A DNA stretch of 64,000 bases from a virus. A program made the translations under genes and the position numbers. Below, one piece after another: positions 13,619 through 23,661 of this stretch. A model generated the notes under the pieces. It saw nothing but the letters and a program-made list of their open reading frames with translations. It did not search any database and had not been told where the DNA came from. Location of the stretch: positions 1,962-65,961 of the IMG/VR virus record IMGVR_UViG_2773858005_000001; one strand, written 5' to 3'. The number at the start of each line of letters is the position of its first letter. Position 1 is the stretch's first letter.

Positions 13619-13645
13619 ATAAAAAAGAGTAGGTTTCCCCACTCT
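13619..13645 (-). terminator. Intrinsic terminator-like hairpin inside the tail operon
   Basis: AGAGTGGG-GAAA-CCTACTCT followed by a T-run. Confidence 0.7.
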
Positions 13646-13656
13646 CTTCTTGTTTG

Positions 13657-14762: not shown

Positions 14763-14786
14763 AAAAAGACACTCTATTGAGTGTCT
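14763..14786 (-). terminator. Terminator-like hairpin immediately upstream of the major tail gene
   Basis: AGACACTC-aata-GAGTGTCT then TTTT. Confidence 0.6.
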
Positions 14787-21797: not shown

Positions 21798-22269
21798 TGG
21801 ATTGTTTATGGTTTGATTGGTTAGGTTGCTGTGGTTGTGGTGTATCTGTTGGCTCTGCTTGAGCTGGCTTGCTGAAGTACAGCTTGACTAACTCTTCTTG
21901 CAGCAATGCGATGTCAGCCATTGTAATGTCATCCACATGCTTGCTTACGCCCGTCTGCTCTTCAATGAATGTTTGGGTTAACTGTATGTTGTGTGGCGTT
22001 GTAGCGACACCTCGCATTGTTACAGCAAGGATTGTAGCAGCTTCATCTGCTCGAACACTGTACGCTGAAAAGATACTGTCAATCATACTGACGATTGCAT
22101 CCAGACTCTTCTCTTTCTGTAGATCAATAAGATTGTTAATGTATGGATAGTTAGTGTTAGGTTTGACGTTCGGTGTGTTAGGTTCAGTTGATTGCTTAGC
22201 CTTTGGTTGTTTGGTGTTAGGTTGTTTGCCTTTAGATTGTTTAGTTGTCATTATGTTCGCTCCTTTCAT
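21787..22269 (-). CDS. Hypothetical protein with Q/P/N/K low-complexity termini
   Basis: ORF with KQPNTKQPKAKQ and PQPQQPNQ stretches; start may be 22251. Confidence 0.6.
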   Translation of the reverse strand: MKGANIMTTKQSKGKQPNTKQPKAKQSTEPNTPNVKPNTNYPYINNLIDLQKEKSLDAIVSMIDSIFSAYSVRADEAATILAVTMRGVATTPHNIQLTQTFIEEQTGVSKHVDDITMADIALLQEELVKLYFSKPAQAEPTDTPQPQQPNQSNHKQSNAN

Positions 22270-22778
22270 TCGCTTACTTCGGGTCTGATTGGTAGGTCGT
22301 TGTCGTGTGTGCGAATATGTTTCACTCGGTATTTTGCGTTAACTGTTTCTCTTTGTATCTCCGCCGCTGTTTCATTACCTGTCGCTAAACGGACATACTC
22401 AACGTTGTTTTGATTGTCATGTGACAAAATACGAACATCAACAAACGGAATGAATAATTCAGTATCTCGGTGGTCTTTAGTTGCCCACACAAATTTAATG
22501 CTTTCCAATCCTTCTGTATCTGAGTACGCTAAGTTTCCATCTATTGATATGATTGGCACGTCACCACGCTTAGGCACACGTATGTTAATGTAATCATCGT
22601 CATTTGTACCAGCAGCTAGTGGTATGTGTTCAACACGTGAGAATCGTTTTTCATAACCAATACCAGGACCTATCACATCCCGAAGTGCCTTACGTTGTTT
22701 ATCACTACGGTTGTTCGGATTAAAAATATACTTAATAATTTCGTCTGTATTGTTAGTTTGTTTTGTCATGGTTATCAC
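22266..22778 (-). CDS. Hypothetical protein
   Basis: 170 aa ORF with GGGAG RBS, translationally coupled to the next gene. Confidence 0.65.
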   Translation of the reverse strand: MITMTKQTNNTDEIIKYIFNPNNRSDKQRKALRDVIGPGIGYEKRFSRVEHIPLAAGTNDDDYINIRVPKRGDVPIISIDGNLAYSDTEGLESIKFVWATKDHRDTELFIPFVDVRILSHDNQNNVEYVRLATGNETAAEIQRETVNAKYRVKHIRTHDNDLPIRPEVSE

Positions 22779-22801
22779 TCCCTAACTTAATTTAATGTAT
22801 G

Positions 22802-22825
22802 AAAAAAGACACCCTGTTGGATGCC
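22802..22825 (-). terminator. Intrinsic terminator after the tRNA
   Basis: GGCATCC-aaca-GGGTGTC then TTTTTT. Confidence 0.75.
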
Positions 22826-22837
22826 TTAATTGTTCTA

Positions 22838-22909
22838 CTGAGATAACAGGACTCGAACCTGTAACCTACGCATTAACAGTGCGTTGCTCTACCATTGAGC
22901 TATATCTCA
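22838..22909 (-). tRNA. tRNA-Asn (GTT), CCA not encoded
   Basis: Cloverleaf: acceptor TGAGATA/TATCTCA, D arm GCTC-AATGGTA-GAGC, anticodon arm ACGCA-CTGTTAA-TGCGT, T arm ACAGG-TTCGAGT-CCTGT. Confidence 0.95.
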
Positions 22910-22916
22910 TTATATA

Positions 22917-23190
22917 GTGTGGCAAGACCGTTTTTATAATCCACACACGCACGTCTGCGTTTATTTTAAGCTTCACTTTACGAGCTTCGGAAATCGCTGA
23001 GAGTTGTTGTTTTGAATCGATACTCACAAAGGATTGCTAGTAACCTAGCTATTGCTGTACACAATATGATGTTTCGGTAGCGGCTTTTCCGAGCCATCAT
23101 CTACCTATCACTTGCTGACGTCCCGAACGTCAGTGTGAGCCAACTAATTGTATGTACCGCTCCCACAGCCATACAAGTTAATCGCCCATC
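22917..23190 (-). ncRNA. Candidate structured non-coding RNA in the late-operon leader
   Basis: No ORF of 60 aa or more; at least seven stem-loops (see findings). Confidence 0.55.
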
Positions 23191-23253
23191 AAGTTTTTTA
23201 ACTAATATCATCGTAACATGGATTTATCAATAGATGTGTTGGCAAAATGTAGG

Positions 23254-23661
23254 CTACAACTTTGTGCCATTGAATTCAATTATCTTTTTCAATCGTGCAT
23301 GTCTGTCACGGATGTACTGATAACTATAGCCAGTTAACACAGCTATCTCAGACAGCGACAACTCATCCACATACCTCATAATTAATATACGATTATCCAG
23401 TCCCTCAAAACGTTCAATCAAAGTTACGATTCTTTCACGATGTGATTGCTTTTCTTCTAATTTAGTTTTCAAGTTATTAATCACCTCTTTTATTTCACCT
23501 TGTTTTTCAAGTGATGTTAAGAACGTTTGTGTTTTCTCTAGATCCCCACCATCTAGCCAACGACTTAACTCTTTTTCCTTACACTCAATTTCCAATTCTA
23601 AAATATCAATATCTGTCATTGTGTCATTGTATAATCTCAACCACTCGTATATTGTAATCAC
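23254..23661 (-). CDS. ArpU/RinA-family late transcriptional activator
   Basis: IERFEGLDNRILIMRYVDELSLSEIAVLTGYSYQYIRDRH sigma70-r4-like HTH; last gene before the late region. Confidence 0.85.
   Translation of the reverse strand: MITIYEWLRLYNDTMTDIDILELEIECKEKELSRWLDGGDLEKTQTFLTSLEKQGEIKEVINNLKTKLEEKQSHRERIVTLIERFEGLDNRILIMRYVDELSLSEIAVLTGYSYQYIRDRHARLKKIIEFNGTKL

Follow-up and report, generated by a model that had tools for sequence, protein, structure and literature searches.

In phage λ, a short leader made from the late promoter PR', the 6S transcript, ends at the terminator tR', and the late genes need a read-through that is provided by the Q protein, loaded at a DNA site. To our knowledge, this leader is not a conserved structured RNA, and we know of no tRNA carried by it. 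The tRNA cluster of phage T4 yields stable RNAs (species 1 and 2, RNA C and D), which are co-transcribed with the tRNAs and freed by tRNA-processing enzymes; they have no known function and are not leaders of a late operon. We are aware of only few RNA elements that control late transcription in Gram-positive phages, and every RNA-based antiterminator known to us (put, EAR, conAn2 and canT) has been found singly. These four are RNA-only or RNA-based processive antiterminators reported for Gram-positive mobile elements, and put, EAR and canT act as nascent RNA without being translated (PMC11658703). Another set of structured RNAs, GOLLD, ROOL and drum, occurs in Firmicute phages and prophages, often near tRNAs (Weinberg et al. 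2017, PMC5737381).

The locus analysed here lies in a window of 64,000 nucleotides (positions 1,962 to 65,961 of IMG/VR record IMGVR_UViG_2773858005_000001), which is a provirus of a temperate Brochothrix siphophage. Between a late regulator gene and a tRNA-Asn gene, it carries a non-coding folded RNA that lies outside the catalogued families and is made of two separately evolving parts. Like the λ PR'-tR' segment, the late-promoter leader ends at a terminator before the late genes, and, like put, EAR and canT, a promoter-proximal structured RNA of a mobile element stands ahead of the intrinsic terminators of a long operon. Whereas put consists of two stem-loops of ~35 nt, the Brochothrix RNA comprises three hairpins and a motif over ~150 nt. 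It further differs from put, EAR and canT in having tRNA and tRNA-like genes between the element and the terminator, and in that its function is predicted; no sequence or structure similarity to the three was detected against the models held in Rfam 15. The T4 stable RNAs, compared by description and belonging to an unrelated phage and host, resemble it in being small non-coding RNAs beside a phage tRNA. GOLLD and ROOL are much larger, and drum has a different architecture. The features of the locus, in positions of the window, are the following:

23254-23661, minus strand: late regulator gene ('ArpU-like', 135 aa, with a sigma-70 region 4 type domain), directly upstream of the RNA unit.
23210-23218, minus strand: extended -10 promoter TGtTACGAT, without usable -35, aligned among relatives.
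~23056-23203, minus strand: leader domain adjoining the promoter, with three hairpins (H1-H3) and then a 15-nt motif.
23141-23184, minus strand: H1, with a lower stem, an upper stem UUGUAUG/CAUACAA and a conserved tip GCUG...CGGUA (covariance alignment).
23108-23138, minus strand: H2, CUGACGU/ACGUCAG on a short lower stem UCAC/GUGA (covariance alignment).
23076-23105, minus strand: H3, GGUAG/CUACC around GGCU/AGCC with loop CGGAAA (covariance alignment).
23056-23070, minus strand: invariant 15-nt motif AUCAUAUUGUGUACA, containing the palindrome UGUACA and matched exactly only once in the window.
22995-23055, minus strand: 3' half of the core, with possible hairpins UAUUGU/GCAAUA, GCUAG/CUAGC and UGUGAGU/ACUCUCA (predicted pairings).
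22910-22993, minus strand: module C, an 84-nt spacer directly upstream of the tRNA, with three hairpins, AAGCU/AGCUU, ACGCA-GACG-UGCGU, and GUGUGG/CCACAC with a CGGUCUU loop motif.
22838-22909, minus strand: tRNA-Asn (GUU), CCA not encoded (ARAGORN; Rfam tRNA model 77.6 bits).
22800-22827, minus strand: intrinsic terminator T1, with a 9-bp stem, an AACA loop and a U-tract (called at 22806-22827 in the terminator scan).
22266-22778, minus strand: first gene past T1, ~170 aa, without assigned function; its RBS begins ~25 nt past the U-tract.

At the locus, the window shares ~90% DNA identity with the Brochothrix thermosphacta temperate phages BL3 and BtpYZU01-03. The gene order on the minus strand is regulator, RNA region, tRNA-Asn, T1, late genes, and then HNH, TerS and TerL, the RNA having the same sense as the tRNA. 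The regulator matches the PHROG 36 transcriptional regulator family (E 3e-16); its Pfam Sigma70_r4_2/r4 match is below cut-off and its NCBIfam sigma-70 superfamily match is weak. Homologous loci were gathered from six phage records, about 15 IMG/VR proviruses and three assemblies with a divergent lineage (L144, L157-159); L001, L003, L006 and L007 stand for BL3, NF5, BtpYZU03 and ADU4, respectively. Among these relatives, the space from the regulator gene to the conserved terminator and a 16-nt block behind it is a mosaic. Its 5' part contains the promoter, a 5' module of three or four sequence types and a conserved core; its 3' part contains an optional tRNA-like element X with an insert of 45-170 nt, an optional module D, module C, a tRNA or other element, an optional ORF and the terminator. 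The tRNA is Asn, Trp or Met, depending on the phage. In the window this layout is at its shortest, with 5' module, core, module C and tRNA-Asn.

A preliminary description, drawn from the sequence of the window alone, had listed nine stems in a single densely structured RNA of ~270 nt. All nine were found where it had placed them, and an independent scan also detected the hairpins at 23036-23049 and 22947-22960. That the RNA is structured was borne out on the minus strand, where a stretch of 291 nt folds better than shuffled sequences (MFE -82.5 kcal/mol, z = -2.76, 1 of 200 shuffles as good); the plus-strand fold is weaker (z = -1.53). The 148-nt 5' domain alone reaches z = -3.75, with none of 200 shuffles as good, and the divergent L144 homologue folds unaided into the equivalent three hairpins (z = -3.51). 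The closing helix UGAUG/CAUCA of the MFE fold of the window was discarded because it is impossible in BL3-type or L144 sequences.

The covariance model R1, built from three window-type sequences with the structure read from the window alone, recovered BL3-type, YZU03, L013 and L144 homologues at 33-98 bits. In the resulting alignment, which is fitted to the model and covers only about five lineages, 90.5% of cells pair, versus 74.9% in shuffles and 26-40% in slid controls, and 27 of the 38 pairs have changed on both sides; none of 500 shuffles reaches the observed values. Many G-U pairs fit the minus-strand RNA only. Thirteen of the 18 pairs of H1 are changed on both sides (91.4% of cells paired), its upper stem existing as three unrelated sequences (UUGUAUG/CAUACAA in the window type, AGCAUA/UAUGCU in the BL3 type, UGAAAGA/UCUUUCA in L144). 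The upper stem of H2 shows double changes in 5/7 pairs (90.2% paired), the lower stem being weaker (72.9%), and four versions of the stem sequence occur across lineages: CUGACGU/ACGUCAG (window), CUAGAG/CUCUAG (BL3), GUCAAGG/CUUUGAC (L144) and GGUGG/CCACU (YZU03). For H3, 96% of cells pair, with double changes in 3/5 and 3/4 pairs; GGUAG/CUACC in the window is the same or CUGCC in the BL3 type, and L144 has GAGCAG/CUGCUC and UGAU/AUCA at the stem sites. Stem sequences are swapped wholesale between lineages, but the loop motifs GCUG..CGGUA and CGGAAA stay. L018 is the only relative without the motif AUCAUAUUGUGUACA behind H3; even L144 has retained it. Conservation and covariation, which the preliminary description had proposed as a check, were thus found for its stems TTGTATG/CATACAA, CTGACGT/ACGTCAG and GGCT/AGCC, whose pairing is kept through double changes among related phages. 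Its stem ATGATG/CATCAT exists in the window-type lineage only and is impossible in BL3-type sequences; what is conserved at this site is the pairing GGUAG/CUACC (23101-05 with 23076-80).

R1 was found exactly once in each temperate-phage record, always just downstream of the regulator gene, and it had no match anywhere in the virulent phage ADU4. L013 retains H1 and H2 only and L014 retains ~35 nt of the domain, both records being 60-79% complete. L008 has an unrelated spacer in place of module C and retains H1-H3.

Window-type and BL3-type phages share a conserved sequence in the 3' half of the core, for which L144 has a replacement. Variation is too small to judge the pairings H4-H6 and a long-range helix UGGGCGA/UCGAUUCA; likewise, with so little variation, the comparison speaks neither for nor against the described stems GCTAG/CTAGC and GAGT/ACTC. 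A separate model, R2, was built for module C, and its matches include ADU4 at 61 bits. In its alignment 96.8% of cells pair and 7 of 16 pairs show double changes, through which the three hairpins hold in ADU4, L018 and L014; the described stems AAGCT/AGCTT, ACGCA/TGCGT and GTGTGG/CCACAC accordingly stand. ADU4 is a virulent Herelleviridae phage in which module C lies between two X elements of an RNA array, with ROOL and drum within 1 kb of the module C copy. In temperate phages and ADU4 alike, module C precedes tRNA or tRNA-like genes. The leader domain is found only in Brochothrix temperate phages, and module C is common to these and the virulent Herelleviridae phage. Since R1 is absent from ADU4 and module C is present there, the region joins units with different histories: instead of the single RNA first described, it is a mosaic of two evolutionary units, the leader domain and module C.

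At gathering thresholds, Rfam 15 returned only the tRNA-Asn, and the RNA region itself had no family match, in line with the expectation of an unclassified RNA. With E up to 10 over 22700-23400, nothing was found within 22910-23203 except noise overlapping the tRNA. There was no threshold-level match to GOLLD, ROOL, drum, EAR, tmRNA, 6S or T-box in Rfam 15 (for EAR, only if modelled there), and no homology to those antiterminators for which Rfam 15 has models. With ARAGORN and the Rfam tRNA model, the tRNA-Asn was the only element detected, and H1-H3 gave nothing tRNA-like; neither H1-H3 nor module C is closed by a stem of acceptor type, and the tRNA-like X elements are absent from the window. 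The preliminary description had called the region richer in GC than nearby spacers; at 0.40-0.435 its GC content is higher than that of the upstream early genes (0.32-0.36) and about equal to that of the late genes. The RNA is a new family of narrow range, found in phages of one genus at ~15 loci.

Several candidates were tried and set aside. The only exact-pattern match to the core in genome contigs was a chance 21-mer in a Clostridiales MAG, within an ORF of 599 aa, and the four matches in metagenome contigs were all due to chance, with dissimilar flanks. A degenerate module C pattern gave more than 100 loci in viral contigs, mostly by chance. A packaging RNA like the phi29 pRNA came to mind from the pre-terminase position and the palindromic UGUACA; nothing supports it, and the packaging system differs. 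A cos or pac site was also discarded, the genome end of BL3 being located ~590 nt beyond T1, outside the region.

The region had been described as free of ORFs, and in the comparison no ORF proved conserved: neither frames nor start codons persist among relatives, and small frames are broken by loop indels whose lengths are not multiples of 3. A small-protein reading could point to three ORFs on the minus strand of the window (36, 40 and 53 aa) and to two genes, BL3 gp62 and NF5 gp54, annotated at the equivalent place in relatives. We give this reading hardly any credence: BL3-type phages lack the ATG at 23100, gp62 of BL3 starts elsewhere and runs into an insert absent from the window, the frame is shifted by hairpin-loop indels (5 nt; 1+3 nt), and one of the ORFs begins upstream of the predicted transcription start. 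BL3 gp62 (L001:881-1003) and NF5 gp54 (L003:1291-1422) lie inside the conserved non-coding RNA with unconserved frames and are probably mis-annotations.

The extended -10 that had been noticed near 23210 is conserved in position in all lineages (TGnTAnnAT). TGtTACGAT of the window is identical in L144 and aligns with TGaTAAAAT in BL3, YZU01-03 and NF5; a -35/-10 consensus scan did not pick it up. Transcription is predicted to start near 23203, and the leader domain begins ~25 nt after this site. As the region lies between the conserved -10 and the tRNA-Asn, co-transcription is the natural reading; both co-transcription with the tRNA and release from it, as first proposed, remain inferred from sequence. 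In public runs, available as assembled Logan contigs from which ends and levels are not readable, contig X13 of an RNA library covers 23142-23236 and on past the promoter; because it continues upstream of the promoter, it shows no start. In the cDNA run X9, the contigs are short and confined to module C, the tRNA and the core's 3' half; neither run is evidence of expression, of ends or of absence.

In BL3 (L001:1170-1215), the extended -10 is immediately preceded by three direct repeats (GGAGTTTTAG or CGGACTTTT) spaced by 11 bp; L002, L003, L005 and L006 have equivalent repeats. The late regulator of the BL3 type, gp61, is likely to bind there. In window-type phages the sequence upstream of the -10 is another one, and so is the regulator, of 135 aa versus 163 aa in the BL3 type.

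T1 and the 16-nt block that follows it (CATACATTAAATTAAG) are conserved in every relative, regardless of the cargo upstream. Only ~25 nt separate the U-tract from the RBS of the first late gene, and the tRNA gene or variable cargo lies directly upstream of T1, so that the late genes have no evident promoter of their own; they appear to depend on polymerase coming through T1. Further sense-strand terminators are located deeper in the late operon at 14767-14786 and 13621-13650. In NF5, L009, L014 and L024, an apparent second terminator (hairpin and U-tract, read by eye) lies within the leader before a moron ORF.

On the minus strand, T1 and the terminator at 14767-14786 share a nearly identical 22-nt hairpin (22804-22825 and 14764-14785, respectively), GRCAYYC-AAYA-GRGUGUC-U4, a pattern derived from these same two terminators; it could point to duplication or specific recognition of the element, instead of two terminators of a generic kind. 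The apparent internal terminator sequence before the moron ORFs of NF5, L009 and L024, and before a shorter ORF in L014, is GCAUAUC..GGUGUGC-U6. Moron ORFs occur in the late leader of NF5 (L003:554-1294, 246 aa), L009, L013 and L024; they are AT-rich and encode an N-terminal hydrophobic segment, the remainder being rich in Lys and Glu.

The preliminary description left a role in cis unconsidered. The unit is the 5' leader of a late operon and ends at a conserved terminator, which points to such a role. We propose the following course. Transcription would start near 23203, at the promoter (23210-23218) just past the gene of the sigma-r4-type regulator, and the RNA would run through the ~150-nt H1-H3 domain with its single-stranded motif, the 60-nt part, module C, tRNA-Asn and T1. 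RNase P, cutting at the 5' end of the tRNA (22909/22910), would free a leader of ~294 nt; both the transcript boundaries and this cut are inferred. The nascent H1-H3 domain would act in cis on the transcribing RNA polymerase, like HK022 put, Bacillus EAR or Tn916 canT, and polymerase from the late promoter would then read through T1, and later terminators, into the packaging and head-tail genes. The domain indeed lies between the promoter and the operon terminators in sense orientation, and three of its traits speak for a transcription-linked role in cis: its position, its single copy and its resistance to module exchange. We put the chance that H1-H3 is a cis-acting aid to terminator read-through at somewhat short of even. 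Against it, T1 may simply be leaky, and L013 and L014 are devoid of part or nearly all of the domain. In phages of Enterococcus, Staphylococcus and Bacillus, moreover, a homologous regulator is followed by the next gene after only 86-120 nt and no leader RNA was found, so late transcription by this regulator family needs no leader in general.

The same data were weighed against other readings. The leader, spacer, tRNA-like RNAs and tRNAs could form an RNA operon comparable to the T4 tRNA cluster with its RNAs C and D, from which RNase P and RNase Z would release stand-alone stable RNAs carried as cargo and acting in trans on translation, tRNA metabolism or host defence, the proximity of the late genes being incidental. 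This is a real possibility, but a doubtful one. The unit does have its own promoter and terminator, the locus is an exchange hot spot (tRNA-Asn, Trp or Met, X elements, modules C and D), module C and X recur in ADU4 beside ROOL and drum, which are thought to act in trans or have no known role, and the phages of other genera with a homologous regulator manage without a leader. H1-H3, however, is never exchanged or duplicated, always stands beside the promoter and is absent from the ADU4 array; antisense matches of the invariant motif AUCAUAUUGUGUACA within the prophage are at chance level, with none better, and transcription of the late genes through T1 is left unexplained.

The constant place of module C directly 5' of a tRNA or tRNA-like gene, ADU4 included, would also suit a passive leader whose hairpins insulate the tRNA precursor and the late mRNA and guide RNase P and RNase Z, with the T1 hairpin serving after processing mainly as a 5' stabiliser of the late mRNA; in Firmicutes, 5' stem-loops are established as a shield of mRNA against RNase J1. 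We consider this unlikely, since three hairpins, the loop motifs GCUG..CGGUA and CGGAAA and a 15-nt stretch that survive full turnover of the stems are unexpected for a spacer, and L008 swaps module C for an unrelated spacer yet keeps H1-H3. That the hairpins are functionless, being decayed tRNA genes or chance structures in a long spacer, seems very improbable. A T-arm-like hairpin does occupy the H2 position in YZU03 and the neighbouring X elements are clearly tRNA-derived, but neither ARAGORN nor the Rfam tRNA model finds anything tRNA-like in H1-H3, compensatory changes affect 27/38 pairs with a collapse in the slid controls, and the folding z-scores are -3.5 to -3.75 in two divergent lineages.

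Returning to read-through in cis, a more specific form of it, which we advance as a speculation with the odds against it, is that H1-H3 represents a novel class, an RNA-only processive antiterminator that licenses the late genes of Gram-positive temperate phages and permits a 'cargo bay' behind it. If so, polymerase made to ignore terminators would have let the bay fill up with spacer RNAs, tRNAs, tRNA-like RNAs bearing large inserts, and moron genes that bring along terminators of their own. The RNA of this locus is compact, supported by covariation and placed at a defined regulatory site, and it is amenable to a simple reporter test, for which the window, BL3, YZU03, L013 and L144 types constitute natural compensatory mutants. 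The locus further documents an exchange of tRNA-like RNAs and small structured RNA modules between temperate and virulent phages of Brochothrix, which, next to ROOL and drum, is a useful context for these unexplained RNA classes.

Additional RNA elements were observed in the relatives. The 5' module of YZU03 (L006:1740-1830) is unlike the others. Its H2 position has a perfect hairpin resembling a T arm (GGUGG-UUCAAGU-CCACU), and a 6-bp stem of acceptor type (GUCUUA/UUGAGAC) may also be present; together these suggest a decayed tRNA at this position. The tRNA-like X RNAs were detected in BL3 (L001:797-962), L002, L005, L011, L015/L017/L024, L018, L021, L144 (1833-1935) and L158, and in two copies in ADU4 (L007 ~1310-1700). 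They measure 85-186 nt in total and exhibit an acceptor stem GCGAUAG/CUAUCGC plus A, a D arm of class-II type as in tRNA-Leu and a T arm GCAAGG-UGCAAAU-CCUUGC, variable inserts replacing the anticodon arm. Compensatory changes are found in the acceptor stem (GUGAUAG/CUAUCAC), the D stem and the T stem. Neither ARAGORN, also with introns allowed, nor Rfam called the X elements.

The ADU4 array (OM135992.1 7154-10228) is composed of ROOL (L007 2444-3007), a tRNA, drum (2157-2272), X, module C, the second X, a C-like spacer, tRNA-Met, tRNA-Lys and tRNA-Arg; several annotated 'hypothetical proteins' of 30 aa overlap these RNAs. Module D, a conserved non-coding module of ~110 nt that starts with UAAUUACCAGUAUAAAGGUUGGCAAG, is located between X and module C in L021 (2840-2950), L015, L014 and L144 (1940-2060). 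Finally, L010 (3257-3440) and L012 (3253-3436) carry, in place of tRNA-Asn, an element of ~180 nt with a closing 7-bp acceptor-like stem ACUGCCG/CGGCGGU and a D-arm-like hairpin, which may be another tRNA-like RNA.
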